Shown in pieces: positions 3,440 to 59,710 of a DNA stretch of 64,000 nucleotides; position 1 is the stretch's first letter, and every line of letters starts with the position of its first letter. Source of the stretch: a bacterium (lineage in GTDB: Bacteria; Patescibacteriota; Minisyncoccia; Phycocordibacterales; UBA5272). Where the stretch lies: positions 3,424-67,423 of the forward strand of contig JAYSUJ010000024.1 in the NCBI GenBank assembly GCA_043719155.1. Reading direction: 5' to 3'. A program made the position numbers and the translations under genes. Under the pieces are notes generated by a model. That model did not search any database, had not been told where the DNA came from, and was given only the letters and a program-made list of their open reading frames with translations.

Positions 3440-3529
3440 CTTTTTTTCTGGTTTTTCTTTTTACATTTTACCACAAAAAAGACTCCCCCACGTTTTGCAA
3501 CGCGAGAGAGCCAGTCGTCCAAAGAGATC

Positions 3530-3814
3530 TTAGAAACGGTTTGTAATATGACCGTCGGGCTCGACAGAGACTTTCGTCCCAACCTTTGCCTGTTTTGGCC
3601 AAACAACGACCTTAGTCGTCGAACCGTCAGGGAAACGAAGAGTCACCTCTTCGCCCATGCAGCTCAGGCTCATCACCCGGCACTGCCTTTCCAGATCGTA
3701 AATCGGTCCTTGGACACTTTCAACCACTCCCTCCCGAGTCTTCACCTCCTGTCCGTTGGACGAGGTGGTGCCGACTGCGAGAAAGGCAACTACTGCGAGG
3801 ACATGACGAATCAT
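3530..3814 (-). CDS. Small secreted hypothetical protein (signal peptide) in a sharply GC-rich patch
   Basis: MIRHVLAVVAFLAVGTTSSNGQ... begins with a signal-peptide-like N-terminus. The region 3480-3830 is far more GC-rich than its flanks by eye. An alternative plus-strand ORF 3548..3841 lacks any signal. Confidence 0.35.
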   Translation of the reverse strand: MIRHVLAVVAFLAVGTTSSNGQEVKTREGVVESVQGPIYDLERQCRVMSLSCMGEEVTLRFPDGSTTKVVVWPKQAKVGTKVSVEPDGHITNRF

Positions 3815-3866
3815 GTTGTATCCTTTTGGTTTGTGTGGTAGATAATCTAAATAATAACAGAAATAT

Positions 3867-5120
3867 TCATTTTGTCAAGCTCTTGTCCCCCTTCCCAGAA
3901 GGGGGACAAGAGTAGAGAAGAAGCGCAACACACAGGACGACAGATGCAAATATGGTAGAAATTTTTACCCCAAATCTTTCACTCATGAAACCAACGTACA
4001 AACCACCTATGGAGCCAGTACCAATAATTGCCATGGACCAAAGAGAAGTGACTAGTCCAAGCATCTTTTCTTTACTATTAAGCATAACTAAAGCATTTGC
4101 CGTATTACCCATCAAAATTCCCAAAAACCCAGTCAGTAAAACGAAAAGCAGAAAGAAAGGAAAAGTTAGAGGTAGGGCCAAACAACCGAAAACCATAATA
4201 AGCAGAAAGCCTAATTTTTTTACTTTAATTTGACTCACATTTCTGTCTTGGGCCCCGTATATACCACCCAACACACAGCCAACGCTATAAAAAGTAATAA
4301 TAGTAGCATAGGACAAGGCGTTGCCACTAAAAATTTGCTTGATGAAAATTGGTGCTAAAGTTTGAATTATTAAAATAAAAGTCCCAACAACCCCCAAAAG
4401 AAGTAAGGTATCCCTTACGACTAAATTTCGCCAAATTTCTTTTAAATTTTTTATTAAACTTTTTTCTTCTTTTTCTTTTTCCTTCTCTGTTTCTGAGTTT
4501 TTTTCTATTTGGTTAAATTCACTCTTATTCATTTTTAAAATTAGAAAAATAGCAGCTAAAAAAGAACAGGCATTTAGTAAGAAACACCAAGCTGCCCCAA
4601 ATGCTGCCAAAACTATGCCTGAAATAATTGGACCAATAATTCTACCTAAACCATTTATGGTTGAAAAAAGCGATATAGCATTTTTAGTTTCGGATTTTGG
4701 TATAAGCCTGTACCTTAAAGATTGACGAACTGGGGCATCAATAACACGCAGCATTCCAGCCCAAAGTGCACTTGCGTATAAGAAATAAATATTTAGACCA
4801 CCGGTAAACAGGAGGCAAGCAACAAAAAATGGCATCAGAAATTGCAGAAATTGCACAATTAAAACTGTTTTATACTTTGGCAAACTGTCCACAATGTGTC
4901 CTCCAAATATCCCAAACACCAAAAGTGGCAAAAATTGTAAGGCAGTTATGATTCCCAAGGTTTCAGCCGAGCCTGTAATTTCATAGGCTAGCCAATTTAA
5001 AGCAATTGCCTGAACCCAAGAACCGGTTATGGACACAAATTGGGCAGCTATATACAGTCTAAAATTTCTATACTTAAGTGAGGAGGTAATTTTTTGAAAA
5101 ATACTAGAAATTTTAAGCAT
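3867..5120 (-). CDS. MFS transporter, EntS/MFS_3-like
   Basis: 417 aa with about 12 predicted TM helices. Conserved N-terminal RNFRLYIAAQFVSITGSWVQAIALNWLAYEITGSA is typical of MFS_3 exporters. Confidence 0.65.
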   Translation of the reverse strand: MLKISSIFQKITSSLKYRNFRLYIAAQFVSITGSWVQAIALNWLAYEITGSAETLGIITALQFLPLLVFGIFGGHIVDSLPKYKTVLIVQFLQFLMPFFVACLLFTGGLNIYFLYASALWAGMLRVIDAPVRQSLRYRLIPKSETKNAISLFSTINGLGRIIGPIISGIVLAAFGAAWCFLLNACSFLAAIFLILKMNKSEFNQIEKNSETEKEKEKEEKSLIKNLKEIWRNLVVRDTLLLLGVVGTFILIIQTLAPIFIKQIFSGNALSYATIITFYSVGCVLGGIYGAQDRNVSQIKVKKLGFLLIMVFGCLALPLTFPFFLLFVLLTGFLGILMGNTANALVMLNSKEKMLGLVTSLWSMAIIGTGSIGGLYVGFMSERFGVKISTIFASVVLCVALLLYSCPPSGKGDKSLTK

Positions 5121-5188
5121 CTAAACATTCTACCATAACAAAAAACTTATCTTTGCAGATAAGTTTTTTGTTTGTAAATTCTTAAACT

Positions 5189-5614
5189 TTAGTTTGTAAC
5201 TTCGATACCCATAGACTTTGCAGAACCTGCTAAAACTTTAGCAGCAGCGTCTATTGTAGTTGCATTTAAGTCTGCCATTTTAAGGGCTGCTAATTCTTTT
5301 AAGTCTGCCATAGATATTTTCCCAGCTTTGATACTTCCAGGTTTTGTAGAACCTTTTTTCATTCCCATTTTTGTAAGTATGAGCTCTGTGGCTTGGGTTG
5401 TACCAGTTTTAAAGTCATAAGTTCGGTCTTCGTAAACAGCAATTTTTGCAATTAATTTACCTTTTTTGTCTTTAGTAGCATCATTGAATTTTTTTACGAA
5501 CTCAGCAATGTTGATACCAGCTTGCCCAAGAGCCGGACCTAGTGGCGGCGCAGGAGTTGCTTTTGCAGCTTCGATCTTTACTTTTATATTCTTTTTAGCT
5601 ATTTTTTTTGCCAT
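5189..5614 (-). CDS. rplK: 50S ribosomal protein L11
   Basis: MAKKIAKK...ATPAPPLGPALGQAGINIAEFVKKFN is the L11 signature. It lies downstream of nusG. Confidence 0.9.
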   Translation of the reverse strand: MAKKIAKKNIKVKIEAAKATPAPPLGPALGQAGINIAEFVKKFNDATKDKKGKLIAKIAVYEDRTYDFKTGTTQATELILTKMGMKKGSTKPGSIKAGKISMADLKELAALKMADLNATTIDAAAKVLAGSAKSMGIEVTN

Positions 5615-5698
5615 ATATTTTCTTATTGCTCAACATTATATCATAATTTTACCAAAACTCAAGGCTCCTGCAGACTTTATTTGTATGAAATATGAAAA

Positions 5699-5734
5699 GG
5701 GGACGAATCATTTTCGTTCCCCTTTTTGTTTTTT
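5699..5734. terminator. Bidirectional intrinsic terminator hairpin after the inserted 102-aa ORF
   Basis: ggggacgaa / ttcgt(t)cccc stem with a tcatt loop, followed by ttttt on plus and tttt on minus. Confidence 0.5.
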
Positions 5735-6041
5735 ATCCTCCTTCTTTTTGGTTGTAGTTGGTAAACATCGACCTCAATCTCATTTTAGCTTTTTCTCGTT
5801 TTGAGTGTCCGACATGCCAACCATTACAGTACTTACATTCATAGGCATGGACCGTAGACTGAAATCTCTCCTTATGCCACAAAACATGCTGGTGGGCACT
5901 TCTCTGGTCCAAGTGCCGCACCTTTCCGGTGCAGCCAGTGTTCCTCATGTACCAGTGTTTCCCCATCTGACTCACCTCCTTTCGGTTTTTGATAAGATAG
6001 AAAAGACAGCCGCAAATTACAACCAAAAAAAGCACAATCAT
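5733..6041 (-). CDS. Cys/His-rich hypothetical protein, possibly zinc-binding, GC-rich; inserted between nusG and rplK
   Basis: ORF contains ...GCTGKVRHLDQRSAHQHVLWHKERFQSTVHAYECKYCNGWHVGH. Its GC content is visibly higher than the neighbours and it has its own terminator. The true start may be internal M26 (MGKHWY...). Confidence 0.3.
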   Translation of the reverse strand: MIVLFLVVICGCLFYLIKNRKEVSQMGKHWYMRNTGCTGKVRHLDQRSAHQHVLWHKERFQSTVHAYECKYCNGWHVGHSKREKAKMRLRSMFTNYNQKEGG

Positions 6042-6045
6042 GTGC

Positions 6046-6597
6046 TTACATTGGTTTCACTTGCAAAAAGTCCAACTCCACCGGCGTCTCTCGTCCAAAC
6101 ATGTTTACATTTACTTTTAGCTTTCCTTTTTCTACATCCACCCCTTCCACTTTTCCTTCCATACCTTTAAATGGTCCGTCTGTTATAGTTACATTTTCAC
6201 CAATTGCGATCTTAAGGGCATGAGTAGTTTTTGTATCTTTTAATTTGCTCCAGATAAACTCAATTTCCTTTGGAGTTAGCGGTACAGGCACAGTTCCTGC
6301 CCCCACGAAACCTGTTACACGAGGTGTGTTTCGAACAAGGTACCAAGAGTCCTCGTCGGCTATCATGTCTACTAGAACGTATCCAGGATAAAAATTTTCT
6401 TCAACTTCTACTTTTTTTCCATTCTTGATTTTTACTTTCTTCTCCAAAGGAACAAGTACGTCAAAAATCTTGTCATTCATACCTTCACTCAAAACTTTTT
6501 GTTTCAAATTTCTTTCTACTGCTTTTTCATAGCCAGAATAAGTCTGTATTGCATACCATTTTCTCACATTGCCTGCTACGTCATCTAAAATATTCAT
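6046..6597 (-). CDS. nusG: Transcription termination/antitermination factor NusG
   Basis: NGN domain (KWYAIQTYSGYEKAV) plus C-terminal KOW (VTITDGPFKGMEGKVEGVDVEKGKLKVNVNMFGRETPVEL). Sits in a secE-nusG-rplK context. Confidence 0.85.
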   Translation of the reverse strand: MNILDDVAGNVRKWYAIQTYSGYEKAVERNLKQKVLSEGMNDKIFDVLVPLEKKVKIKNGKKVEVEENFYPGYVLVDMIADEDSWYLVRNTPRVTGFVGAGTVPVPLTPKEIEFIWSKLKDTKTTHALKIAIGENVTITDGPFKGMEGKVEGVDVEKGKLKVNVNMFGRETPVELDFLQVKPM

Positions 6598-6600
6598 AAA

Positions 6601-6795
6601 TTATTTAACTTTAAAATAGTTAATTCCTTTTAAAATAGCCTCACCGAAACCAAGGTCAAGTGCACCCAAGTAAACAGCCATAACAGCAGTAAACAGTACC
6701 ACGAAAAGTGTAAAGTTTACCACCACGTTTTGTGAGGGAAAAGTTGTTAATTTGAGCTCTTTTTGTATATCTTTTAAATATGTTGACAAATTCAT
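6601..6795 (-). CDS. secE: Preprotein translocase subunit SecE
   Basis: 64 aa with a single C-terminal TM helix, immediately upstream of nusG. Confidence 0.7.
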   Translation of the reverse strand: MNLSTYLKDIQKELKLTTFPSQNVVVNFTLFVVLFTAVMAVYLGALDLGFGEAILKGINYFKVK

Positions 6796-6804
6796 AATGC
6801 TGCT

Positions 6805-6834
6805 ATTATACCAGAGAAAACGAGATTAGTACAA
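6805..6834 (-). promoter_or_regulatory. Putative sigma70-like promoter for secE-nusG
   Basis: On the minus strand TTGTAC, then 18 nt, then TGgTATAAT (an extended -10) ending about 10 nt before the secE ATG. The transcript may be nearly leaderless. Confidence 0.35.
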
Positions 6835-6840
6835 TTTAAA

Positions 6841-8286
6841 CTAGTTAGAGGTTATTGAATCAAAAATACTATTAAAAATGTAGCTATAATTTTCTAGTAA
6901 GTTGGCACTAAAAATTGGTGTCGTAACCAGATACAAAATTTCTTTATTTACAAAAACCACCTCTTCGACAAAAGCTGGCGAGTTGAAAAGTTGCCCATCT
7001 TTGTCATAAAAACGAATACTAACAGCTTTTCCTATATTGCCCAAAGTGAATTGTGAAGTTTCCTGCTTGCTTATACCCATATCACCCAATGCTACTATCA
7101 ACTCTGAAATTTTATTTTTTATTGCTACTTCTTCAGACTGATAACCAATATTGCTCTTGCTGATTACAAATGTTTCTGAAAAATTATCCAACTTGCTTTC
7201 ATAAGGAGATAGGAGCATGATAGAGACAGTCTTGTTTGCATTTGTAGAGGAACTAGTTGTCCATCCTAGTGGATAATATATTTTTATATTTCCATAATTA
7301 ATTTTATTTTTTAAAAATTGACTAGGTTTAGTGTTGGTTGCTGGAAGACTTTCGGTCTTTAGGTCTGTTATATTTTCTAAAAATAGTTTTATGGTACTAG
7401 ATGGAATAATGTACCCCAAGTTGGAACCAGCTTCAAAAGTTGCACTTTCAACCAGCCCATAATAGCAGCCATTATTTTGCCCAATGGCAATACCGCCCGA
7501 GTTACCATGGTTAGTACTGGCACTAATTTTTATCCTATTGTCCTCTCCACCTTGAAACCCACTCACCACACCTTCTGTTAATGTCACTGACTCCCCACCA
7601 GTAGTTGGGTAACCAATGATAAATATCTTGTCACCAATCTCAATGCTTTTAGAGCCACTACACATATTGGACACAGACTTAAAAACATCTTTCACTTTTG
7701 GTGGCATGGCATAAGTCTCGCCGTTCAGATTTTTGTTAGCTTTTTCGATAGTTAAAACAGCCAGATCCAAGCCTTCTATTTTAGATTTACTAGTTTCTAT
7801 TTTAGCTATTTTATTGTGGTACAAAACAGCTTTTTTAGAAAAGTAAGAAGTGTCGTAAAAAGTACCGTCGGTTGGTTTTGGAAAATAGATGTTACAGCCG
7901 TGAAATTTTTCATCTAAGCCTAGCACTACATGAGCGTTGGTTTGCACGCTTGGAATACCCTTTTCATTTAGAAAATATATACCACTACCCACTATAGTTT
8001 CTGGGCCACCGTCTGCATCTGAGCATCGTACCTGAGCCACAGCCGGGATAATATCTTTACGAATTTGAGACAAAACTTGTTCTGGTGACTTTTGATAAAA
8101 GTAAGAGAGTTTTTGAGAGAAAAAAATTCCCATAATTCTTGAATTTAAATAAATAATTCCAAAAAAAGAAAGCAAGATGGAAATAGAAATAAGCAAAGTG
8201 TAAACTCTGACTAAAAAATGTTTATGCAAATATTTATCTAGCATTATGCAACAAGTATCACATAGATAAAAGAAAAAAGTACTCAA
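6841..8286 (-). CDS. Membrane-anchored trypsin-like (S1) serine protease
   Basis: N-terminal TM anchor. TNAHVV supplies the catalytic His region and HGNSGG the catalytic Ser motif (GNSGG). Confidence 0.55.
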   Translation of the reverse strand: MSTFFFYLCDTCCIMLDKYLHKHFLVRVYTLLISISILLSFFGIIYLNSRIMGIFFSQKLSYFYQKSPEQVLSQIRKDIIPAVAQVRCSDADGGPETIVGSGIYFLNEKGIPSVQTNAHVVLGLDEKFHGCNIYFPKPTDGTFYDTSYFSKKAVLYHNKIAKIETSKSKIEGLDLAVLTIEKANKNLNGETYAMPPKVKDVFKSVSNMCSGSKSIEIGDKIFIIGYPTTGGESVTLTEGVVSGFQGGEDNRIKISASTNHGNSGGIAIGQNNGCYYGLVESATFEAGSNLGYIIPSSTIKLFLENITDLKTESLPATNTKPSQFLKNKINYGNIKIYYPLGWTTSSSTNANKTVSIMLLSPYESKLDNFSETFVISKSNIGYQSEEVAIKNKISELIVALGDMGISKQETSQFTLGNIGKAVSIRFYDKDGQLFNSPAFVEEVVFVNKEILYLVTTPIFSANLLENYSYIFNSIFDSITSN

Positions 8287-8316
8287 AATAAATGGGATGT
8301 GTGGAAAATGTAAAAC

Positions 8317-8925
8317 ATGTTACAATTTCAATATAAAATAAATATGTTAGAGATAATACACAACTTTGGATATACTGGATTGTTCGTAACCATATTTGCA
8401 GAAATTGGGGCTATGATGTTTTTCTTGCCTGGTGACACCCTCATCTTTGGGTCTGGAATGTTGGCTGAAACTGGTGCTATGCATTTTTTAGGAACTATCT
8501 TTTTGATTTTTACTTCGTCTGCCCTAGCTGGTCATTTTGGTTATTTTGTTGGGACAAAAATTGACAGAGAAACACTTATAAATAATAAGTATTACAAAAT
8601 CAAAGACGCCCACTTAGAACATACTGAAAAGTTTTTTGCAAAATATGGTGCTTTAGCCATTGTAGCATCTCGCTTTGTGCCCATAGTCAGAAATTTTATT
8701 TCCCAAATTTGTGGACTATTAAAATATAATAGAAGAAAGTTTTTCATTTACAATCTTATTGCTAGCTTTATTTGGCCGGCAATTACCGTTTCTTTGGGGT
8801 TTTATTTTGGTAAAATGTTCCCGAACTTAGTTGTGTACATGGAGTATTTTATGGTTATAATGATAGCCATCGTGGCCTTACCTTTTATTTTAGAGATGGG
8901 TAAAAAACTTTTTAGGTTTAAATAA
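8317..8925 (+). CDS. DedA/SNARE-associated family membrane protein
   Basis: FLPGDTLIFGSGMLAETG motif and a multi-TM profile typical of the DedA family. Confidence 0.55.
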   Translation: MLQFQYKINMLEIIHNFGYTGLFVTIFAEIGAMMFFLPGDTLIFGSGMLAETGAMHFLGTIFLIFTSSALAGHFGYFVGTKIDRETLINNKYYKIKDAHLEHTEKFFAKYGALAIVASRFVPIVRNFISQICGLLKYNRRKFFIYNLIASFIWPAITVSLGFYFGKMFPNLVVYMEYFMVIMIAIVALPFILEMGKKLFRFK

Positions 8926-8927
8926 AA

Positions 8928-10118
8928 CTACTTTTCTGCAGTAATACCTTCTATTTCCTCCTTTAATTTAGCAACCAAGGCTTCCATGTCGAGTTTTTGT
9001 ATGTACAGTTTATTCAAATTTTCAATAAGTTTTAGGACCAAATCTTTTCCAGCTATTTTTTCAGCACCTGAAGCGTCCCTTGACAAAGCCCCTGTGGAAC
9101 TATTCACTACAAAAAAATCATTGTTTGGTACGCCGTCGATGTACATTTCACTAGTTTTGGCTATTCTCCAAAAAGCATCACAGTTGCCGACCAAGATTTC
9201 CATTTTCCCGTTTTTATTTACAACTTTAAAGTCGATAATCAACCTCATACTTGCGGGTCTGTCGAAAAGTTCTGTATTTTTAGTTGCATCTGGTGGTGCG
9301 GATCGTATCAACTCTTCGACAACCAAATCCTCAATATCCACTTCTCTACCCCAAAGTCTGGAGTAGTGAGTAGTGATTTCCAATATTTTATTTCTCAGTC
9401 TAAATTCCAAAACATCTAACATAAAAACCTTATCTTCCTCGGTATCTGAAAATAACTCACCTTCATCACGTTTTATGTCTGGGAAAATATGTATACCTTC
9501 ACCTCTGGCTCCGTCCACTGGTTTTACTATCCAAAACCCAGATTCAGGTACAGTTTTTAAATTTAATTTACCAAAAGGTCCGACCAATTTTCTAGCAGAA
9601 TTTTCCAGAGGTGTAAACTTGGGATGATTGAGCTTGTTATCACAAAGGTCACGAATATAGGGTGGATTGGGATTGGCATGAAGCGGGTATGCAGCCTTGT
9701 CTAAAATATCACGGACATACTTTTGAACTCTAGGGAAAGCCTCTTCTGAAAAACCTGTCTCCATGTGACGCATTTCATATCTAGTAACAGGTTTGCCAGC
9801 GAGTTTTAAAGTTTCATCAAAAGCTCTGGCTTTATCTAAAACATCTGGGTAATCAGGGTTGTTACGCCCCCTTATCCTTGCTTTTATCCTATCAGCATAA
9901 CTCACCATGCCTTTAGGAATTTTTTCTTTACCAAAACCAGACGTTGAACCATTGGTTTCCACTATCCACCAATGACCGTACTGATCCATAAACATATCTA
10001 CACCTAGAGTGCCTACCCATTCTAAGTCATTTGCCTTCGTCTCTACTTTAGCTTTAAACTCACCCAGTAATTTACTGAACTGAGACTCTCCTGGCTTTGG
10101 CTCTTTTCCAATCATCAC
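8928..10118 (-). CDS. Hypothetical protein with an ATP-grasp-like (TTL-like) segment
   Basis: FWIVKPVDGARGEGIHIF resembles the ATP-grasp/TTL KP..G.RG.GI motif, and WWIVETNGS is a possible E.N metal site, though in atypical order. Overlaps the rluA-like gene by 4 nt, ATGA. Confidence 0.3.
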   Translation of the reverse strand: MMIGKEPKPGESQFSKLLGEFKAKVETKANDLEWVGTLGVDMFMDQYGHWWIVETNGSTSGFGKEKIPKGMVSYADRIKARIRGRNNPDYPDVLDKARAFDETLKLAGKPVTRYEMRHMETGFSEEAFPRVQKYVRDILDKAAYPLHANPNPPYIRDLCDNKLNHPKFTPLENSARKLVGPFGKLNLKTVPESGFWIVKPVDGARGEGIHIFPDIKRDEGELFSDTEEDKVFMLDVLEFRLRNKILEITTHYSRLWGREVDIEDLVVEELIRSAPPDATKNTELFDRPASMRLIIDFKVVNKNGKMEILVGNCDAFWRIAKTSEMYIDGVPNNDFFVVNSSTGALSRDASGAEKIAGKDLVLKLIENLNKLYIQKLDMEALVAKLKEEIEGITAEK

Positions 10119-10930
10119 CCAAGTTTATCACATTCTATTTTTATAATTAGACCTATATGTGGATGCAAAAATTCTAAACTTTTAGCATGCAACATTAATC
10201 TGTTTTCAGTATTTACTTTGACTACCCCAGTCTCCAGATTCAACAGTAGGGACTCTATTTGTTTTGTAGAGTGTTCATTTGCAATTCCATTAACTCCATA
10301 TTTTGTATCTCCAACAATAGGATGTCCTATGAATCTACAGTGCAAGCGTAATTGATGTGTGCGACCAGTTTTAGGATACATTTTTAATGTTGAAGTATTT
10401 TCTTTTTCGTCATAATTTAAAATTTCAAAATTGGTTTCGGCAACTCGCTTGGTATTTCTACCGCCCTCTTCCCCAGTAAAACCACAAACCCAAATACGCG
10501 GATCTTTTTTATGTCTAGAAATTGGCTCCGAAATTTCATAAAAATTTTTTAACTCTGTTTTAAAAATTTTTTTTTCACTTATTAACTTTTGTAAATTTAT
10601 TTCTCCCCAGACTTTAACAATGTACTCTTTTAAGATAGTTCTATCCAAAAATTGTTTTTGCAGATTTTCAAAAACCTCTTGATTTTTGGCGACCAAAATA
10701 ACCCCACTAGTTTCCCTGTCTAATCTGTTCAAAATCCCCCATCTTTTTTCGTAACGACCACTGTCGAGCGTGTGTGGGTTACCTACGTCTTCCAAGTTTG
10801 GAAATTTATTTTTTATAAAATCTGACAGAGTGGCTTCTGTCGTGCGACCATCAGCATGCACTACCAAACCAGCAGGTTTGTCGACTGCAAACAAAAATGC
10901 GTCTTCAAAAATTATTTTTACGTCTGGCAT
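10115..10930 (-). CDS. RluA-family pseudouridine synthase
   Basis: LVVHADG...HRLDRETSGVILVAKN is the RluA catalytic motif HRLDxxTSG. Confidence 0.8.
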   Translation of the reverse strand: MPDVKIIFEDAFLFAVDKPAGLVVHADGRTTEATLSDFIKNKFPNLEDVGNPHTLDSGRYEKRWGILNRLDRETSGVILVAKNQEVFENLQKQFLDRTILKEYIVKVWGEINLQKLISEKKIFKTELKNFYEISEPISRHKKDPRIWVCGFTGEEGGRNTKRVAETNFEILNYDEKENTSTLKMYPKTGRTHQLRLHCRFIGHPIVGDTKYGVNGIANEHSTKQIESLLLNLETGVVKVNTENRLMLHAKSLEFLHPHIGLIIKIECDKLG

Positions 10931-10950
10931 TTGTTAACAATTATAGCAAA

Positions 10951-12144
10951 TTATCCAAATAAAAAACTCCAAAAACTAGGAACAGACAAATCTAAGTCTT
11001 CTGGTAAGGTAAAAAACATGTTCCCTGCAAAATCTCTTTCTAGCTTTTGCCTACATCGGATATTATTTACAAAGGCAAAATCTGAACAGAGAGTTTTAGT
11101 TAAGTCTTTTTTTTCAAATTTTTCTTCATTTCTTAAAATATCATAGCTCAGTGAATACAGACAATGTACCTTGTACTCTAAACTGCTTTGATTCATACAA
11201 AACTTACGAGAAATAACAATTGGGGTCTTTCCCTTTTTACCAAAAATTTCCATAATAAATCTTCTATTACAAGCAAAGTGCTTTTTATCATCCCTATACA
11301 AGTTACAAAAATCTGAAATTTTCTGATAATTTTTTGCTAAAAAATTTGCGGAGCGGCTATTCACAAGCAAACAAGAATACTCTGCCAAGTCAGAGTTGTC
11401 CTGATATTTTTTACAATAATCTATACTAACTTTTTCTTTTAAATCGTCTACCACTTGAAAGTAGTCCATGAAAATTCCTGTGTGACAGGATAATAATTTA
11501 TCTCTGCTTTTAGAAATAATTTCACATGTTTTGATGGCCTCTGGTATGTCTTTGCTGTTTTGAAAAACAAAATGCCCCAACTCATGCATACCACTTATGT
11601 AAATGTTTCGCTTACCATTAAGTTCTCCCGTTTGAAATTGTTGAGCTAATTTTTCTATTAACTCATTTTGAAGCTTAGAACTTTCTATACCATTACCGAT
11701 AATGCCGTGTACATAACCATTGGCACAGATAAAACTAAAGTTATTTTTGTATGGGTCATACTCTAAGCTTTTGCTAGGACTTTTATTTACCAAATTGGCT
11801 TGATAGCCAATTTCATGTGATACAGAGTGACACGAAGCTTCGGTTATCTCGTGACTATCAAGTAAATAATTTAAATCTGTAAATAGATTGTCAAAAAAAA
11901 CTTGGTCAAATTTTTTAATAGCAATTTGCTTTTTGACCAGTTTTTTGGCACAATTTGTAAATTCCAAATTTGATAATTTACAGGCTTTGAAAAAGTTATT
12001 TGATAGATCTGCTTCTTTTAATTTTTCATCGACAACCTCTTCAATTTCAAAATCATTCACATTTGTATAAAAATTAACAGGCATAACAAAAAGGAAAAGG
12101 AAAGAGGTAAAGTAAAAAACAAAAACTAAAATCCAAAATTTCAT
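10951..12144 (-). CDS. Membrane-anchored hypothetical protein with an HExxH (zincin-like) motif
   Basis: GMHELGHFVF. Start re-assigned to the internal Met at 12144, because the first 21 codons of the tracked ORF are encoded by the vWA terminator hairpin. Confidence 0.35.
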   Translation of the reverse strand: MKFWILVFVFYFTSFLFLFVMPVNFYTNVNDFEIEEVVDEKLKEADLSNNFFKACKLSNLEFTNCAKKLVKKQIAIKKFDQVFFDNLFTDLNYLLDSHEITEASCHSVSHEIGYQANLVNKSPSKSLEYDPYKNNFSFICANGYVHGIIGNGIESSKLQNELIEKLAQQFQTGELNGKRNIYISGMHELGHFVFQNSKDIPEAIKTCEIISKSRDKLLSCHTGIFMDYFQVVDDLKEKVSIDYCKKYQDNSDLAEYSCLLVNSRSANFLAKNYQKISDFCNLYRDDKKHFACNRRFIMEIFGKKGKTPIVISRKFCMNQSSLEYKVHCLYSLSYDILRNEEKFEKKDLTKTLCSDFAFVNNIRCRQKLERDFAGNMFFTLPEDLDLSVPSFWSFLFG

Positions 12145-12164
12145 AATTTTATTTAGTTTAGCAT

Positions 12165-12204
12165 AATAAAAAAGTGGCCAGTTTCGCGAAGCGAAACTGG
12201 CCAC
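12165..12204 (-). terminator. Strong GC-rich intrinsic terminator of the vWA gene
   Basis: Perfect 14-bp stem gtggccagtttcgc-gaa-gcgaaactggccac, followed on the minus strand by a T-run. Confidence 0.7.
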
Positions 12205-12231
12205 CACTGACCCAACTTTAGCCCTTAAGCT

Positions 12232-13329
12232 TTAGTCGATGTCAAAATCGAACCCACCACCACTGTCGTTGCTTCCGCTGTCGGACGAGCCACCACCCCA
12301 AGAAGGAGTGCTGTCTTCGCTCGAGCTGTGCGAAGGTTGGGTGTAAGAACTATCAGCATCACTGCTGTCGTCACCACTGTTGCCATCCTGGAGAGCTTCC
12401 AGGTCGTCCTCATCATGGACGTCGCCGTCGGTTTCGAAACCGCCAGTCTGCTCGCCGTTGGCGTCCAATGAGCCCTTGGTAGGGTCAAAGTCCGCTGGCA
12501 AGAGAGCGATCTCCTGCTGGAGATCGGCAGGCAACGAGAACATGTCCGGGAGGGGTTCATCGAATCCGGACACATCCTCTTGGACAGCTTGTTCCCAGGT
12601 CTTGGAAACACCGTCCACACCCATGGCTTCGTTGCGGTCAGCTTCAGAGAAGCCGAGCGACGAAGCTTGGGCAGAGCCAGGCGCAAGAAGGTGATAAGCC
12701 AACCCGAGCCCAGCGGCGGCAACGAAGGCCATGGCTACAGGGTTGCTTCCGCCACCCTTGCCTTTGCCGAACCAGCTCGACTTTGCAGCCGGCTGATTGT
12801 TGCCTTGAACATGCACGTTCATCACGCGCTCCTTGGGGATACCCATCGGCTCAGCCTGTTGCCAGGCGTCGATGTTGGCCCCGAGGTAAATCACGATAGT
12901 TCCGGCTTTCTGTTTGCGCTCCACCAGGGCGCGCAAGGCAGAAAGCTGACTAAACTCGCCTTTCGAGGCGTTTTCGATACCGTCGGTAAAGAGCACCACG
13001 ACATAGTCGGTGTCCTGCTCGATGTTATCGTTCAGGGCAGCCGCCAAGTTGTCGTAGAGCGGAGTCAATGCCCGAGGCACGTACTCTTCGTATTTGAGGT
13101 CAGCGATCTCGCCACCGAGTCCTTGACGAAGGACATCGGTCCCCATGCTGTCAAAAGTGACGAGCCGGAGGTAGGCGGTCTTGCCACGGGAATCATTGCG
13201 CATCCGGCCGAGGTAGGCATTGCTGCCTTCCACCACCCTGCGCCGCCACGAATACATGGAGCCGGACTTGTCCGCGACAAAGCGAACTTCAAGCTTACGC
13301 TTCGCTGCTTTCGCTACGATTTGAGCCAT
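12232..13329 (-). CDS. von Willebrand factor A (vWA) domain protein with a TM segment and an acidic Ser/Asp/Gly-rich disordered tail; GC-rich foreign patch
   Basis: MIDAS motif FVADKSGSM...LFTDG. TM-like VAMAFVAAAGLGLAYHLL. C-terminus ...DSSDADSS...GGGSSDSGSNDSGGGFDFDID. Codon usage and GC are conspicuously unlike the flanks. Confidence 0.7.
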   Translation of the reverse strand: MAQIVAKAAKRKLEVRFVADKSGSMYSWRRRVVEGSNAYLGRMRNDSRGKTAYLRLVTFDSMGTDVLRQGLGGEIADLKYEEYVPRALTPLYDNLAAALNDNIEQDTDYVVVLFTDGIENASKGEFSQLSALRALVERKQKAGTIVIYLGANIDAWQQAEPMGIPKERVMNVHVQGNNQPAAKSSWFGKGKGGGSNPVAMAFVAAAGLGLAYHLLAPGSAQASSLGFSEADRNEAMGVDGVSKTWEQAVQEDVSGFDEPLPDMFSLPADLQQEIALLPADFDPTKGSLDANGEQTGGFETDGDVHDEDDLEALQDGNSGDDSSDADSSYTQPSHSSSEDSTPSWGGGSSDSGSNDSGGGFDFDID

Positions 13330-13440
13330 TTTTTTCCCTTTCTGAGGGGGTTAATCCTGAGCCTATTTCTCAGGATTTTTATATTATACAATATAAATTG
13401 TAATTTGTAAAAAAATACTTTAAAATAGTTTTTTTTTACT

Positions 13441-14466
13441 TTGTGGGTTATAATAAGTATTACAAAATTCATGTCCCAAAAAACTAATAGTTCTGTAATT
13501 TACGCCTTTTCCGGTAATTTATTCATAACTTTTTTGAAAACTTTAGGCTTCTTCATTTCTCTTTCTCCGTCACTCTTTAGTGAAGCTATTCACTCTCTGG
13601 CCGACACTGCCAACCAAGGTTTGTTATGGATAGGAGCAAAACGTTCCAGAAAAAAAGCTGACCTCAAACATGTTTATGGTTATGGTGCTGAGAAATTTTT
13701 CTGGGCTACAGTTTCAGCTTGTGGCATTTTCTTTTTGGGAGCAGGCATAACCATTTACCATGGTGTAGAATCTTTTTTACACCCAACAAGCTCAACCACA
13801 TCAGCTTGGGTTTACATAATTTTATTTGTTTCGTTTGTCGTAGAAGCCTTCACGCTTTATAAAGCCTATCAAGAAATATCTCAAGTTGGTGAAGATACTT
13901 TTCTAGAAAATTTAAAATACGCAGACCCTATTTCTATAGCTGTTTTTTACGAAGACACAGTTGCGGTACTGGGTATTATCGTAGCAACACTGTCAATTTA
14001 CCTAGCTAAAATTACAGGTAATCACTTATTTGATGCATTTGGGTCTATCATTATCGGTTGTCTTTTAGCCATAGTTGCGGTTTTACTTTTAAACATGAAT
14101 CGTCAATATCTACTTGGTCGTTCTGCTCCAACAGAAATTGAAGAAGGCATAAAAAAACTTTTACTTTCTGATAAACATGTAGAAAAAGTTTTAGATTTTA
14201 AATCTGAAGTTTTAGATATTGGAAAATATTTAATCAAGTGCGAAATAGAATTCAACGGCTATGCACTTGTTGGAGAAATATTTAAAACTGAGGACATGGA
14301 AGAAATATTTGAAGACGTGAAAGATGACTTCCAAGAATTCCAAAAATTTGTTATTTACCAAACAAATCAAGTTCCTAGAATGGTAGGCAGAGTTATAGAT
14401 GCATTAGAAAAAGAAATTAAACACAAATTTCCAAGTGTAGAACATATAGATTTAGAAATTAATTAG
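13441..14466 (+). CDS. Cation diffusion facilitator (CDF) family metal transporter
   Basis: Six-TM N-terminal domain with HSLADT... plus a cytoplasmic C-terminal domain, the typical CDF architecture. Confidence 0.65.
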   Translation: MWVIISITKFMSQKTNSSVIYAFSGNLFITFLKTLGFFISLSPSLFSEAIHSLADTANQGLLWIGAKRSRKKADLKHVYGYGAEKFFWATVSACGIFFLGAGITIYHGVESFLHPTSSTTSAWVYIILFVSFVVEAFTLYKAYQEISQVGEDTFLENLKYADPISIAVFYEDTVAVLGIIVATLSIYLAKITGNHLFDAFGSIIIGCLLAIVAVLLLNMNRQYLLGRSAPTEIEEGIKKLLLSDKHVEKVLDFKSEVLDIGKYLIKCEIEFNGYALVGEIFKTEDMEEIFEDVKDDFQEFQKFVIYQTNQVPRMVGRVIDALEKEIKHKFPSVEHIDLEIN

Positions 14467-14586
14467 CATATACTCTACATATGTCAGAAAAAATTATCTG
14501 GACCCCAGAGGAAGAGGAGCTTATATTGAAAACCTATCTATAAATTACCCGTCTACTTATATTCCATCATTTAATATATAATCGTA

Positions 14587-14979
14587 TTGTCCAATACGAA
14601 ACCAATGGAGAGAAACATGAGTACCATCCAAGCTTTCATTTTCCGCTTACCAGAAGAGGTTGAGGAAAGACTGAATACTGCCCTTCTGATTTGTGGAATT
14701 GCTGTAGATGAAAAACATAGACATGGAACTGGCCCACTTCACAGTGAAATTCCAGTTTCCAGCAGCTTTGTAACCGAACTATATCCAAAATCCAAGAACG
14801 GAAAGTTTAGTTCCCTGGTTCTAGTGGCAACAGTTGATGATTTGGAAAAAACAAAAACACTACTTGATCAAGCCTGTCTTTCACCCAAAAGTGAAGCATT
14901 GTACTTGCTTCTAGAAATAGAAGAAGAGTATTTGCAACTTCAAATCTGGGATAAGAAAGCTTGGGATAGCTTCAAATAA
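14587..14979 (+). CDS. Hypothetical protein
   Basis: 130-aa ORF with moderately higher GC, followed by a terminator. No recognisable motif. Confidence 0.3.
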   Translation: MSNTKPMERNMSTIQAFIFRLPEEVEERLNTALLICGIAVDEKHRHGTGPLHSEIPVSSSFVTELYPKSKNGKFSSLVLVATVDDLEKTKTLLDQACLSPKSEALYLLLEIEEEYLQLQIWDKKAWDSFK

Positions 14980-14986
14980 CCTAGAA

Positions 14987-15017
14987 CTGTTGACGTTCAT
15001 AGCGTCAGCAGTTTTTT
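14987..15017 (+). terminator. Intrinsic terminator
   Basis: ctgttgacg-ttcatag-cgtcagcag forms a 9-bp stem with one G.U pair, followed by tttttt. Confidence 0.6.
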
Positions 15018-15028
15018 CTTTAATTTAC

Positions 15029-15050
15029 TTGGGGTGCCCAATGGGAATTG
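15029..15050. repeat. 22-bp direct repeat, the att-like left boundary; duplicates the 3' end of tRNA-His
   Basis: ttggggtgcccaatgggaattg is identical to 33396-33417. Confidence 0.75.
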
Positions 15051-15443
15051 GTCACGCATAAAATTTGTATTCACAATTTTTTGCGCTACCCCGACTCACT
15101 CGTTTCGGCTCGCTTTGCTCACATCGAAACTTCGCTCCGTCTTTCAATTCCCCTAAAACATACAAACAATTTTAAAACCCCACAAAGGGGGTCTTAAAAT
15201 TGTCTGGGTATCTAACGGTCCAGGAAATGAACACCCTTATATTGGATTTCAACCGTATAGGGACTATATTATCTGGTATTTTTCAGAAAAGTAACAGTAG
15301 CAAACTTCAATAATGACCACTAATCTAAAATTGATTGTTGAGTCTTTTGGAATTAACGATTTCTCCGGTTTTTAACTTTAATTTTTTGTATTTTTCTTTC
15401 GTAAACTACATCTTATTTTCAATTAGATTTGTTGTTCTTTGGA

Positions 15444-15872
15444 TTATTTCAGCGACTCTTCAAAATTAGTTTTAATTTCTGGGTTAACTTTTCTCAATTC
15501 CAAAATAAAACCTTTCAAGTCTGAATCGACTAGAAAAAATGGATATATATCATATAAAAACCTACTGCCATCTTTTTTTCTCACTTCTATATCCTCTTTG
15601 AACAGAGCAGGTCTTTTTACAACCAATGATATATCTTGAATATTTATATTTCTCTTGAAGAAGACATAATCTCGTATCAAAAAGTTACTACTAATAATTA
15701 ACTTTATTTGATTAAAGTATAAATACAAGATTACAAATAATGCGATAAAATACAGTATGTTTGTATAGTCTACATCTGCACCAAAGAAAAAAGAAATTAA
15801 AGCGGGAAAGCAGACTATTGTGAATAGAACCATAAGTCTAATAATTAAAAAATTAAGTTTGTATACTTTCAT
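15444..15872 (-). CDS. Putative toxin immunity protein, a 2-TM membrane protein; paralog of the upstream gene
   Basis: 142 aa with two N-terminal TM helices plus a cytoplasmic domain. C-terminal GFILELRKVNPEIKTN parallels EFLEFVEELKKYNPDIKIN of the neighbour. Confidence 0.55.
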   Translation of the reverse strand: MKVYKLNFLIIRLMVLFTIVCFPALISFFFGADVDYTNILYFIALFVILYLYFNQIKLIISSNFLIRDYVFFKRNINIQDISLVVKRPALFKEDIEVRKKDGSRFLYDIYPFFLVDSDLKGFILELRKVNPEIKTNFEESLK

Positions 15873-15926
15873 ATTATTTATTTAAGAAGTTATTAGACTC
15901 TACCCAATACAACACATTTGGATTAC

Positions 15927-16388
15927 CTACCATATCATATACTTTGCAACCCAAGAACCCCAATTTACGTTAATTTTAATGTCTGGATTATATTTTTTGA
16001 GTTCTTCAACAAATTCCAGGAATTCATTTTTTGAAGAAAAATAATTTGAGATTTGAGGAATTAGTATTTTTCCATTTTTATCAACTAGATTTAGAAATAC
16101 AATTACTGGCAGGACTTTAATTTCAAAAGAGCCAATGTCTATTACTTCGACCAACCTATCCTTAAATCCCTTTTTCTTATAAATTATCAATCTATTTTCA
16201 ATATCAAATTGTAGGAAACTAAACTTTTGAATTACCCAAGTTAGTGACACTATAAACAAAAAGAAGCCCGAGAAATATTCAACGGCACTCTGAGATATAC
16301 TTAACATCCAAATTGAAAATATAAAACAAAGAAGATACAATGCCACAACTGAAAGCCTAATGGAAAACTTATTATTAAGTACCTTCAT
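15927..16388 (-). CDS. Putative toxin immunity protein, a 2-TM membrane protein, immediately downstream of the RHS toxin
   Basis: 153 aa. Starts 2 nt after the RHS stop codon and shares the same architecture as the 15444..15872 paralog. Confidence 0.55.
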   Translation of the reverse strand: MKVLNNKFSIRLSVVALYLLCFIFSIWMLSISQSAVEYFSGFFLFIVSLTWVIQKFSFLQFDIENRLIIYKKKGFKDRLVEVIDIGSFEIKVLPVIVFLNLVDKNGKILIPQISNYFSSKNEFLEFVEELKKYNPDIKINVNWGSWVAKYMIW

Positions 16389-16390
16389 AA

Positions 16391-24583: not shown

Positions 24584-24594
24584 ATATGCTTTTT

Positions 24595-38523: not shown

Positions 38524-38616
38524 AAATATTTTTTACTTTATTTGAACAGAAACATTATAACAAGGAGTGAAGAAAAAGTAAATGCTGGGGGCAAATTTTG
38601 TTAATACTCTCAAAAC

Positions 38617-39684: not shown

Positions 39685-39743
39685 AAACATTTTAACCATT
39701 GTAAAATATAGGATTTATGGTATAATTTTCCTATCCAAAAATT

Positions 39744-39815
39744 GCTTCCGTAGTTCAATGGATAGAACAGGAGACTTCTAAGCTCTTGATGTAGGTTCGA
39801 TTCCTGCCGGAAGCA
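39744..39815 (+). tRNA. tRNA-Arg (anticodon TCT)
   Basis: Acceptor GCTTCCG/CGGAAGC, D-arm GTTC-AATGGATA-GAAC, anticodon loop CT-TCT-AA, T-arm GTAGG-TTCGATT-CCTGC. One non-Watson-Crick pair at 31:39. Confidence 0.7.
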
Positions 39816-53303: not shown

Positions 53304-54062
53304 ATGGATAAAGACAATACAATTTATATTTTTGGAAAAAATGCAGTACTCGGAGCTCTGGAAAACCGACCAGACACAATAGAAAGAATATTTTTAGAAA
53401 ATGGTAAGAAGTTCGACAAAGATTTTGAAAAGAAGGTTTTAGACTTGGTAGAAAAGAACAAAATCAAGAAAGAAATTGTCTCGACTGGTGACCTGTCAAA
53501 GGAGATGCAAACCTCCAACCATCAAGGAATTTTAGCCAAAGTGCGCATCGACAGCCTGACTGTGGACTTTGACTATTTTTTGGAAAACTTAGAGATAGAT
53601 GCAAATACTTGTGTCCTACTTTTAGGAGAGCTGCAAGACGTACAAAATGTGGGGTCTATCATTCGCTCGGCTACGGCATTTGGCATTGCTGGCATCTTGA
53701 TCCCCGAACATGACCAAGCCCAAGTAACTAGTACAGTGGTAAAGGTTTCTGCAGGGACCGCTTTCTCTATCCCCCTTGTAAAAATAAACAACGTAAACAA
53801 TGCTATCGAAAAATTAAAAGAAAAAAGATTTTGGATCTATGGCTTGGACATGTTTGGTGAAAAAAGTATTTTTGAAGAAAAATATACTGAGGCCACTTGT
53901 TTTGTAATCGGCAATGAAGGAGACGGCATACGCCAGAAAACCAAAGAAGCTTGTGACATGCTTTTAAACATACCCATGTCTCAAAATGCTGAAAGTCTAA
54001 ACGCCTCGGTTTCCACAGCTGTGGCCCTGTACGAGTGGAGAAAGCAGAAGTTGAGTAACTAA
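53304..54062 (+). CDS. rlmB: SpoU/TrmH-family rRNA 2'-O-methyltransferase (RlmB-like)
   Basis: N-terminal substrate-binding domain plus SPOUT motifs NVGSIIRSATAFG, FVIGNEGDGI and ESLNASVSTAV. Confidence 0.8.
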   Translation: MDKDNTIYIFGKNAVLGALENRPDTIERIFLENGKKFDKDFEKKVLDLVEKNKIKKEIVSTGDLSKEMQTSNHQGILAKVRIDSLTVDFDYFLENLEIDANTCVLLLGELQDVQNVGSIIRSATAFGIAGILIPEHDQAQVTSTVVKVSAGTAFSIPLVKINNVNNAIEKLKEKRFWIYGLDMFGEKSIFEEKYTEATCFVIGNEGDGIRQKTKEACDMLLNIPMSQNAESLNASVSTAVALYEWRKQKLSN

Positions 54063-58133: not shown

Positions 58134-58219
58134 ATTTAAACTAGTATAACAGAGATATTTTTTACCATGTCCTTTACAAAAATGTAATTTTGTGTTATAA
58201 AATAATAGGAGGTACCCAG

Positions 58220-58402
58220 ATGAAACTTATCCTAGTTTTACTACCTCTGACTCTACTTGTAGGCTGTGCGAACACCCAAATACAGGTACATGTCCCCAAG
58301 CTCAAGCAATGCCTGGACCTAAACAGCTCCAACATCGGCCTTTGCCAAGAGCAGCCAAAATTTGGGACATCTATCTGGGTTCAGCACACTGTCGAGTTTT
58401 GA
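58220..58402 (+). CDS. Small lipoprotein in a GC-rich patch
   Basis: MKLILVLLPLTLLVGC has a lipobox and an AGGAGG RBS lies 8 nt upstream. A GC-rich terminator follows. Confidence 0.45.
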   Translation: MKLILVLLPLTLLVGCANTQIQVHVPKLKQCLDLNSSNIGLCQEQPKFGTSIWVQHTVEF

Positions 58403-58408
58403 GTCGGG

Positions 58409-58436
58409 CCGGAAGCGACAGCTTCCGGTCTTTTTT
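58409..58436 (+). terminator. Intrinsic terminator
   Basis: ccggaagc-gaca-gcttccgg followed by tttttt. Confidence 0.7.
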
Positions 58437-58443
58437 CTTTATT

Positions 58444-58962
58444 TTATTTAATGTCTTTTAAAATTTCTTCCGCGTGTTTTTTTGTGTCAACTTTTCCATA
58501 CACCTTTTCTACCTTCCCTTTTTCGTCAAACAAATAAGAGATTCTGGAGGTGCCAAAATATTTTTTTCCATACATACTTTTTTCTTCCCAGACTCCAAAC
58601 TTTTTTATTATTTCTGTGGATTCATCCGACAGTAAAATAAAATTTAATTTATATTTTTCTTGAAACTTTTTATGACTTTTTACTGAGTCTTTTGAAATGC
58701 CAACTATCTTAACACCCTTATTCTCAAAATTTGTAAAAAAATCCCTAAACCCGCAAGCCTCAGTAGTACAGCCTGGAGTATCGTCTTTTGGATAAAAATA
58801 AATTAGTATTTTTTGTTTTAGTTTTAACAAATTTTTACTACTCACACTTGCTCCGTCTTGGTCTGTTAGCTCAAATTCTGGCATTTTGTCTTTTATTTTT
58901 AACATATATTTATTCAAAAAGTTTAGCATAAAAAATACCCGTCTTTGCCTGAGTTCAGACAA
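58444..58962 (-). CDS. bcp: Peroxiredoxin Bcp (AhpC/TSA family)
   Basis: FYPKDDTPGCTTEACGFRDFF carries the peroxidatic Cys. Confidence 0.85.
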   Translation of the reverse strand: MSELRQRRVFFMLNFLNKYMLKIKDKMPEFELTDQDGASVSSKNLLKLKQKILIYFYPKDDTPGCTTEACGFRDFFTNFENKGVKIVGISKDSVKSHKKFQEKYKLNFILLSDESTEIIKKFGVWEEKSMYGKKYFGTSRISYLFDEKGKVEKVYGKVDTKKHAEEILKDIK

Positions 58963-58973
58963 AGACGGGTTAC

Positions 58974-59672
58974 TTACATCCTGATCTCACTCAGGAGTTT
59001 TGACAGAGCCAAGCGCTGGTCGTCAGCTTCGATTATTTGACTACTGATAACTAAACGTGTGGCCCCAGCGAGCAAGGCTGTCCGCGGTGTTTCCACGCGT
59101 TTTTGGTCGCCATGTGGCACCCCGTCAGAGCGAGAGCCGACAGCAATGAACTCCATCCCTTTCAGGTCTGGGTCCACTGCCAAGCTCCACACTTCTTGTG
59201 GAGAGCAGATGACCCCATGACAACCAGCAACCTTGGCTTTGCGGGCCAAACTTTGCACAACCGTAGCTACGCTCTTATTGAAAGTGTCGACGACTTGGAC
59301 CGGAGTCAAAGACGTCAAGACTGTCACAGCGTAAACGGTTAGCCCAGAGTCAACAGCGGCTTTCATCATGTCGATGCCGCCAGAGGCATGCACCGTGACA
59401 ATGTCGGTCCCGTTGGCCTTTAGTTTTTTGGCACTATTGGCCACAGATTTCGCAATGTCATGAAGCTTTAGGTCGAGAAAGACCTGTTCAGCCCCAACGT
59501 CCTTTAGTTCCGAGATGACTCTCGGGCCAACATCGTGGTAAAGGTCATGGATTTTGACTGCAAAGGCTCCCCGAGCCAAGTCTTTGGTAAAGACTTTAGC
59601 ATTTCCGAGACCCATGTCGTCTAAACCAAAGATTAGGCGATTCATCATTTCAGACTCCGAAAAGTTTCTCAA
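58974..59672 (-). CDS. pyrF: Orotidine 5'-phosphate decarboxylase in a GC-rich patch
   Basis: IFGLDD...VKIHDLY...FLDLKLHDIA (the KLHDI catalytic Lys motif) and a C-terminal phosphate-binding region. Codon usage is conspicuously GC-rich relative to the flanks. Confidence 0.75.
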   Translation of the reverse strand: MRNFSESEMMNRLIFGLDDMGLGNAKVFTKDLARGAFAVKIHDLYHDVGPRVISELKDVGAEQVFLDLKLHDIAKSVANSAKKLKANGTDIVTVHASGGIDMMKAAVDSGLTVYAVTVLTSLTPVQVVDTFNKSVATVVQSLARKAKVAGCHGVICSPQEVWSLAVDPDLKGMEFIAVGSRSDGVPHGDQKRVETPRTALLAGATRLVISSQIIEADDQRLALSKLLSEIRM

Positions 59673-59710
59673 CTCAGAATATCCAAGTTGGTATTGACAT
59701 CATAGCATTT

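Follow-up and report, generated by a model that had tools for sequence, protein, structure and literature searches.

How a genome poor in guanine and cytosine (GC) came to hold sharply GC-rich patches of about one gene each is the question raised by a 64-kb stretch of the bacterial contig JAYSUJ010000024.1 (assembly GCA_043719155.1), which was analysed at its full length and is called the window below. The window has a GC of 0.352, and its gene content includes secE-nusG-rplK, argS, pyrG, rplS, five tRNAs and one LOOT RNA. It originates from an AT-rich (35% GC) Paceibacteria genome of the Patescibacteria, or candidate phyla radiation. Its NusG is 80-82% identical to the NusG of two metagenome-assembled genomes (MAGs), one of which is labelled Candidatus Paceibacteria. 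At seven further loci the identity is 55-61%; six of them bear the labels of Patescibacteria lineages (Staskawiczbacteria, Uhrbacteria, Parcubacteria, Buchananbacteria and two 'Patescibacteria group'), and the seventh is labelled Gammaproteobacteria. Six open reading frames (ORFs), designated P1, P2, vWA, P4, P5 and pyrF, depart from this background. We regard the units that carry them, with a probability of about 0.8, as recent single-gene horizontal acquisitions that resemble phage morons and lie in permissive intergenic slots, with pyrF displaced in situ.

Composition by codon position was computed for 62 ORFs, 56 native and six outlying. The GC at third codon positions (GC3) of the native ORFs is 0.298 ± 0.043 with a maximum of 0.415, and their overall GC is 0.348 ± 0.035; the six outliers have GC3 of 0.52-0.66, which corresponds to z = 5.2-8.4 against the native set and to binomial probabilities from 2e-4 (P5) to 3e-47 (vWA). 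The strongest deviation is that of vWA (12232-13329, minus strand; GC 0.579, GC3 0.664, z = 8.4), followed by P1 (3530-3814, minus strand; GC 0.537, GC3 0.579, z = 6.5), P4 (33627-34343, minus strand; GC 0.459, GC3 0.573, z = 6.3), pyrF (58974-59648, minus strand; GC 0.514, GC3 0.556, z = 5.9), P2 (5733-5966, minus strand; GC 0.457, GC3 0.551, z = 5.8) and P5 (58220-58402, plus strand; GC 0.464, GC3 0.525, z = 5.2). All six were also set apart from all 56 natives by a leave-one-out codon-usage log-likelihood ratio. A raw-GC maximal-segment scan, whose null was 100 third-order Markov simulations of 64 kb (95th percentile of the maximum 13.3), gave scores of 140 for vWA, 50.1 for pyrF, 31.4 for P1, 20.2 for P4, 14.8 for P5 and 12.8 for P2, so that five of the six units exceed the null and P2 is the exception. 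On raw GC alone P2 is borderline and P5 marginal; what stands out in them is their third codon positions. The original prediction of GC-rich, gene-sized patches in AT-rich DNA was borne out by the codon-position analysis for the four patches that it listed and for the vWA cassette, which it had set apart and which is the same class of feature. Its list had missed P4, the inclusion of which makes six units and about 5% of the 64-kb sequence. Two segments of native genes also passed the scan threshold, one in pyrG (61287-61435) and one in a giant ORF (16732-16857, score 16.2), and the sub-threshold peaks include tRNAs. Such intragenic peaks were considered as extra insertions and rejected, the pyrG peak being a conserved Gly/Ala-rich glutamine-amidotransferase motif. 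The giant ORF is a single frame of 2730 amino acids (16391-24583, minus strand) with native composition and this one short GC-rich tract.

The foreign composition extends beyond the coding regions. Every GC-rich ORF (6/6) is followed at its 3' side by a GC-rich hairpin and a T-run: the vWA terminator at 12205-12173 (minus strand) has 15 pairs of which nine are G-C, that of P1 at 3512-3481 (minus strand) has 14 with seven G-C, that of pyrF at 58970-58937 (minus strand) has 15 with eight G-C, and those of P2, P4 and P5 lie at 5699-5721 (minus strand), 33601-33575 (minus strand) and 58406-58431 (plus strand). In three scans the hairpin and T-run sites richest in G-C pairs were those of the six units, save two native hairpins with 5-6 G-C pairs, and native terminator-like sites were mostly long AT-rich stems with 3-4 G-C pairs. 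The earlier contrast between GC-rich terminators and AT-rich hairpins elsewhere therefore held, with the six units ranking first for terminators in their regions. Within the first 20 kb, the two promoter-like sites that match best (11/12 positions) lie immediately upstream of vWA and P1; promoters and terminators of the units were identified as consensus matches. With these signals the units extend over 3481-3878 (P1), 5699-5990 (P2), 12173-13411 (vWA), 33575-34343 (P4), 58205-58431 (P5) and 58937-59672 (pyrF), P5 on the plus strand and the others on the minus strand. The borders are sharp and intergenic, because the flanking native genes nusG, rplK, glycosyltransferase and peroxiredoxin peak at GC3 0.28-0.40 and have no GC3-rich tracts; the possibility that the units are homologous-recombination tracts reaching into their neighbours was rejected, as the flanking genes have no GC3-rich edges. 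Nor does any other native gene hold a GC3-rich tract on a par with the units. Rfam gave no RNA family in any of the six units.

These data also bear on whether the genes are long-resident natives, the high GC of which is kept up in situ by biased gene conversion or by selection acting on mRNA, codons or protein, and we consider this quite improbable. Gly/Ala-rich proteins do raise GC at the first and second codon positions, as the pyrG control illustrates, but the excess sits at third positions (0.52-0.66 vs 0.30). The highly expressed natives rplK and rplS have the lowest GC3, 0.23-0.25, and the non-coding terminators attached to the units are GC-rich as well.

The junctions of the units were checked in Logan assemblies, produced with a different assembler from the raw runs SRR22198340 and SRR23617205, whose contigs match the window at 100% identity. 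One contig from SRR22198340 (L001, window 1957-12197) contains P1 and P2 with both junctions of each, a second (L002, window 12177-17203) contains vWA with its upstream, promoter-side junction only, a third from SRR23617205 (L003, window 23627-39780) contains P4 with both junctions, and two contigs, one from each run (window 58438-61240 and 58574-61240), contain pyrF with both. The vWA 3' junction and both P5 junctions fall inside no single Logan contig and are spanned by the NCBI contig alone. The original prediction had allowed for chimerism, in which a metagenomic assembler spliced pieces of a higher-GC organism into an AT-rich contig. The source is indeed a MAG contig, and two Logan contig ends lie at or near unit terminators, those of vWA (12177-12197) and P5 (58438); these ends could reflect population heterogeneity, with cells that have the insert and cells that lack it, or mere assembly breaks. 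Chimerism would however need six entries and exits of a foreign genome within 230-1200 bp, all of them intergenic and with the flanking synteny intact, and the flanking gene order matches that of relatives. With both junctions of P1, P2, P4 and pyrF reproduced at 100% identity by a different assembler across two runs, this explanation is very unlikely, to the point of being negligible.

The acquisition of single genes leads us to the state of the corresponding sites in related genomes, which were compared for P1 and P2 in the locus L011 and for P5 and pyrF in the loci L090, L092, L093 and L110. These four sites were empty or differently occupied in the relatives examined. L011 and L090 belong to the nearest relative with long contigs (GCA_038326985.1; GC 0.334), and the NusG of L011 is 82% identical to that of the window. 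The gene order of L011 is rluD-VTT-secE-nusG-rplK...argS-pilin, as in the window, its nusG-rplK spacer measures 51 bp, and its rplK promoter can be recognised as that of the window. In L011, tblastn gave no match to P1, P2 or vWA, and the absence of these three genes from the syntenic regions of the closest relative is a further argument against native origin. Upstream of argS, L011 has a different and moderately GC-elevated stretch (12265-12586, GC 0.44), which has no Rfam match.

In the window, P2 is flanked by the nusG hairpin (6047-6030) on one side and by the conserved rplK promoter (5662-5635) on the other. The proposal that it is an insertion between nusG and rplK thus agrees with the contiguity of the two genes in the nearest relative. 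The accompanying assumption that this contiguity is almost universal did not hold, since in three of the nine nearest Patescibacteria-type loci this position is taken by other genes or rplK is missing: L010 (NusG 80% identical) has a gene right after nusG that was named RhuM-like from its sequence alone, L012 has a 143-aa ORF in the nusG-rplK position, and L015 has other genes after nusG and lacks rplK. The start and extent of P2 had also been misjudged: ATG 6041 falls inside the nusG hairpin; the ORF probably starts at ATG 5966, six nucleotides downstream of the strong ribosome-binding site (RBS) AAAGGAGGTGA. The public gene call in this insert (5847-6170, plus strand) overlaps the nusG 3' end and is on the wrong strand; only the minus-strand ORF has family support. 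That ORF encodes a 77-aa Cys/His Zn-ribbon-like protein with the motif Y-x-C-x2-C-x-G-W-H, for which PHROG matches to families of unknown function were obtained on the minus strand only (phrog_14788, 3.9e-7; phrog_15216, 7.4e-7); many phages also encode small proteins that resemble it weakly in tblastn. A 15-nt inverted repeat, 93% complementary, surrounds P2 (5745-5759/6015-6029), and a 9-bp direct repeat, ATCTAAATA, is found around P1; both are AT-rich, lie partly within ORFs, are not common to the units and may be due to chance. Downstream of rplK (5189-5614) the window has an MFS transporter gene rather than rplA, and in L011 rplK (10601-11029) is likewise followed not by rplA but by an ORF whose sequence resembles prephenate dehydratase. 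Ribosomal protein L1 is reportedly absent in some Parcubacteria, and rplK without a downstream rplA in the window and in L011 would fit with this.

The evidence for displacement in situ comes from pyrF, whose neighbours are the native genes for a glycosyltransferase (59711-60883) and a peroxiredoxin (58444-58905). Its product is a 224-aa orotidine-5'-phosphate (OMP) decarboxylase, which matches Pfam PF00215 at 1.3e-33 (117 bits against a cut-off of 27) over profile positions 2-220 of 221. The predicted translation contains FLDLKLHDIAK, in which the D-x-K-x-x-D pattern (DLKLHD) is presumably the catalytic motif of the enzyme. The scores fall below the NCBIfam equivalog cut-offs (153 vs 193; 86.5 vs 92.3), and the protein is therefore a divergent member of its family. 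Five homologous loci were retrieved through PyrG relatives at 72-79% identity. In L093 (PyrG 79%) the order is pyrG-glycosyltransferase-peroxiredoxin, the last two genes overlap and there is no pyrF, which is also lacking in L090 (PyrG 76%). The order glycosyltransferase-pyrF-peroxiredoxin is found in L092 (PyrG 72%), whose pyrF has a native-like GC3 of 0.30 and is 44.5% identical to that of the window, and in L098, whose pyrF is GC-rich (GC 0.554) and 48% identical. L110 (GCA_009612815.1; PyrG 77%) keeps the slot arrangement with a 280-aa AT-rich OMP decarboxylase (4862-5704, GC3 0.21) that has no significant similarity to the pyrF product of the window. Pairwise identities of pyrF among slot-mates are 44-56%, undetectable for L110, and the flanks are 50-75% identical. 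In a neighbour-joining tree with 100 bootstraps the pyrF genes of L092 and L098 paired in 87% of the replicates and that of the window joined them in 2-3%; its most frequent partner (37%) was P0010, a homologue whose gene is itself GC-richer than its neighbours.

A single slot has thus been occupied by three or more different pyrF genes, or by none, and because it is empty or filled by differing OMP decarboxylases across relatives, the comparison supports a putative in-situ xenologous displacement. The xenologous replacement put forward earlier is in this respect better supported than expected, as two relatives have nothing in the slot and the others have three different OMP decarboxylases there. 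The same slot furnishes the remaining evidence on native origin: pyrF does occur in one position across several lineages and is GC-richer than its neighbours in L098, L095 and, at codon positions 1-2 only, L092, but the slot-mates of L092 and L110 have native GC3. The best pyrF matches are 48-52% identical. Homologues at 44-49% identity are found on contigs of 0.46-0.61 GC, those at about 44% lying within complete pyr operons on contigs of 0.55-0.61 GC, and the named relatives are Paceibacterota and Minisyncoccia. The closest relatives of pyrF are other Patescibacteria and not members of a distant phylum, and the pyrF donors are probably inside the phylum. No pyrE was found among the part of the window ORFs that was scanned or in the annotations of the Logan table.

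Next to this slot, the P5 unit shows a similar turnover. It consists of the RBS AGGAGG, an ORF for 60 amino acids with the lipobox LLVGC, and the terminator described above, in line with its earlier description as a lipoprotein with these signals. Matches of P5 to Rz-spanin and lipoprotein PHROGs are weak and confined to the signal peptide and lipobox, and we did not accept them. In each relative examined, the slot that P5 fills downstream of the peroxiredoxin gene has a different content. In L110 the position right after the peroxiredoxin gene is taken by an ORFan (6244-6549; GC 0.54, GC3 0.63) with repeated 'EVTPEE[LV]RC' motifs. Relatives thus carry isolated GC-rich ORFans too, at lower density, and the stretch upstream of argS in L011 (12265-12586) is counted among them. 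L093 contains another outlier (17683-18006, plus strand; GC3 0.53), the 107-aa protein of which has a weak PHROG match to Rz-like spanins (3.7e-5), suggesting that phage-derived small genes occur in the clade.

The products of the other units give hints of where they came from. The vWA cassette has a promoter-like site at 13411-13383, and its 365-aa protein has a DxSxS motif, a transmembrane segment and an acidic tail, matches phrog_7371 at 4.8e-28 and is about 30% identical to vWA proteins in 162 phage records. The predicted Zn-ribbon protein of P2 and the predicted vWA protein belong to phage protein families, and four of the six products appear to be envelope or secreted proteins. P1 has a promoter-like site at 3878-3851 (TTGACA-16-TATTAT, with TG) and encodes a 94-aa protein with a signal-peptide-like N-terminus, for which Pfam, PHROGs, NCBIfam and PADLOC gave no family match and tblastn gave no match in relatives; an AlphaFold2 single-sequence model had a pLDDT of 54 and was unusable. 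The MFS transporter ORF contains in its 3' end, at 3880-3912, a perfect 15-bp GC-rich palindrome, CTCTTGTCCCCCTTC / GAAGGGGGACAAGAG, a short distance upstream of the promoter-like site of P1. None of the patch proteins matched a defence system in PADLOC, and scans of viral contigs found no relatives of vWA, P2, P4 or P1. P4 encodes a 238-aa multi-pass membrane protein of a Bestrophin-like/DUF4239-type family, whose match to Pfam PF14023 (2.2e-7) is just below the cut-off. The family has 192 representatives, of which the best is 69% identical, and eleven metagenomic loci with P4 homologues have GC of 0.33-0.62, at least 0.47 in nine of them.

The P4 unit adjoins tRNA-His and the gene for a large serine integrase (31728-33476, plus strand; phrog_95 at 2.3e-25, Pfam Resolvase). 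The last 26 or so codons of the integrase ORF overlap tRNA-His (33397-33471, minus strand), and P4 lies just beyond the tRNA. This region may be the remnant of an integrative element; it has no clear prophage genes except that for a peptidoglycan-binding, endolysin-like protein at 26972-28060. A full-length LOOT RNA (29268-29385, minus strand; Rfam RF03000, 74.4 bits vs a gathering score of 46.4) is placed upstream of the integrase gene in an AT-rich region, between ORFs of 319 and 158 amino acids.

Whether the units share an origin was considered from their composition and relatives. A single source for all or most of them, taken up repeatedly and being either the host cell of the presumed episymbiont or one phage infecting it, is unlikely. 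For P1, P2, P4, P5 and pyrF, the GC3 values of 0.525-0.579 are homogeneous (chi-square p = 0.96), two units match phage families, and the window is predicted to encode a type IV pilin-like protein (1223-1654). Natural competence is widely proposed as a trait of Patescibacteria. However, vWA has a higher GC3 (0.664) and the homogeneity drops to p = 0.049 once it is included, the test being of low power with such short genes. The nearest relatives of pyrF are Patescibacteria and the vWA and Zn-ribbon genes are phage-like, and no contig was found that carries two of these genes together. It is also rather doubtful, slightly more so than a common origin of most units, that the GC3 of about 0.55 of the five units is the footprint of one recurrent source, a host cell or a phage shuttling between host and symbiont, with lineage-wide cassette turnover driven by uptake. 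If it were, the host could be identified from the envelope proteins and pyrF, which would also mark genes mediating the association, and the re-filling of slots by different GC-rich ORFans in sister lineages would represent uptake-driven cassette turnover.

Separate acquisitions of single genes remain our preferred explanation. The AT-rich genome would have taken up at least six single-gene segments from higher-GC sources, with GC3 of 0.52-0.66, each a self-contained predicted expression unit of RBS, ORF and GC-rich intrinsic terminator, with a strong promoter-like site in addition for P1 and vWA. The segments would have landed in intergenic positions that are variable slots of related genomes, and the presumed route is uptake of DNA, or its delivery by phage, with illegitimate recombination as the next step. 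Directly observed are the foreign composition, most of the junctions, the empty or different state of the syntenic sites in relatives, the terminator structure and the family affinities, whereas the route, the donors with their number and the expression of the units are inferred. Several observations weigh against this explanation. No donor or near-identical copy was found elsewhere among about 15 billion proteins, and all queried patch proteins were singleton clusters at 90% identity. The comparison of syntenic sites in relatives covers four of the six units (P1, P2, P5 and pyrF), the pyrF phylogeny is poorly resolved with 37% as the best support for a sister grouping, and the raw-GC significance of P2 and P5 is weak. 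Target-site duplications, terminal repeats in common and neighbouring mobility genes were not found, except for the integrase near P4, and the repeat analysis of the six regions found no repeat family or attC-like site common to the unit borders. No homologues of P1 and P5 were detected, but the search that covered both, a word-indexed protein search with concatenated P1, P2 and P5, returned nothing, not even P1, and is therefore uninformative on these short proteins. Significant matches were likewise lacking in tblastn of the concatenated sequences, with one match at E = 0.4 in phages and none in plasmids. The earlier idea of repeated single-gene acquisition from a higher-GC donor thus stands as regards the foreign composition and the size of one gene each, and falls short as regards the donor, for which the best matches were 48-52% (pyrF) and 69% (P4).

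Two further features of this clade were noted. Among the native genes, the SpoU-type methyltransferase gene (53304-54062, plus strand) reaches the highest GC3 (0.415, and 0.56 at a local peak over 50 codons). It is 85-86% identical to the copies of L092 and L093, whose PyrG are only 72-79% identical to that of the window; the gene may have been transferred earlier or within the clade, or may just be strongly conserved. In relatives, GC-rich palindromic mini-elements of the form CCCTCTCC-loop-GGAGAGGG are contained, in frame, in rluD, in argS (two copies) and in a glycosyltransferase gene (L011 8660-8678, 12868-12886 and 14030-14048; L098 135-157). They add peptides such as 'PDPSPRERGVV', and the window has none. 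These elements of L011 and L098 are reminiscent of the in-frame palindromic elements of Rickettsia.

As for their meaning, the units indicate that the streamlined genomes of Patescibacteria may gain genes singly, as predicted ready-to-express units, at a few permissive intergenic slots, and that even a 'core' metabolic gene such as pyrF can be exchanged repeatedly at one locus. The six ORFs would then be accessory genes rather than lineage markers, and their composition is a handle for tracing the donor, possibly the host, in the same metagenomes.

As compared to known systems, the units are closest to genomic islets and to horizontally transferred genes of atypical composition, as described by Lawrence-Ochman amelioration and for Patescibacteria (PMC12455944). 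They are alike in GC, GC3 and codon usage, in patchy distribution, in intergenic insertion and in enrichment for envelope proteins and proteins of unknown function; they differ in being unusually small (one gene) and dense (six in 64 kb), with no donor found and no nearby mobility gene for five of the six. A survey of 125 Patescibacteria genomes, Paceibacteria included, reported hundreds of islands and individually transferred genes, and 83% of the predicted transfers were within the phylum (PMC12455944). Single-gene horizontal transfer in Patescibacteria is therefore already well documented, and there is no new kind of system here. Integron cassettes also consist of single-ORF units, promoter-less or self-contained, with an imperfect inverted repeat, but the present units form no array, their inverted repeats are ordinary hairpin and T-run terminators, and no IntI-type integron integrase was found among the annotated neighbours of the units. 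The likeness to phage morons lies in the single ORF with its own terminator, the foreign composition, the insertion between adjacent resident genes, the own promoter-like site (P1 and vWA only) and the two products in PHROGs. Unlike morons, however, the units have no phage structural genes beside them, and their context is that of chromosomal housekeeping genes (nusG/rplK, argS, pyrG); they are flanked by nusG/rplK, argS/MFS and glycosyltransferase/peroxiredoxin, and P4 alone is near a phage-type serine integrase. In-situ xenologous displacement is matched by pyrF, whose function, position and neighbours are constant and whose genes are phylogenetically discordant, and unrelated in L110, with the difference that pyrF stands alone here instead of in a pyr operon and that some relatives have no pyrF. 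Of all these details, the one that stands out most is that sister lineages have filled the same slots anew, again and again.

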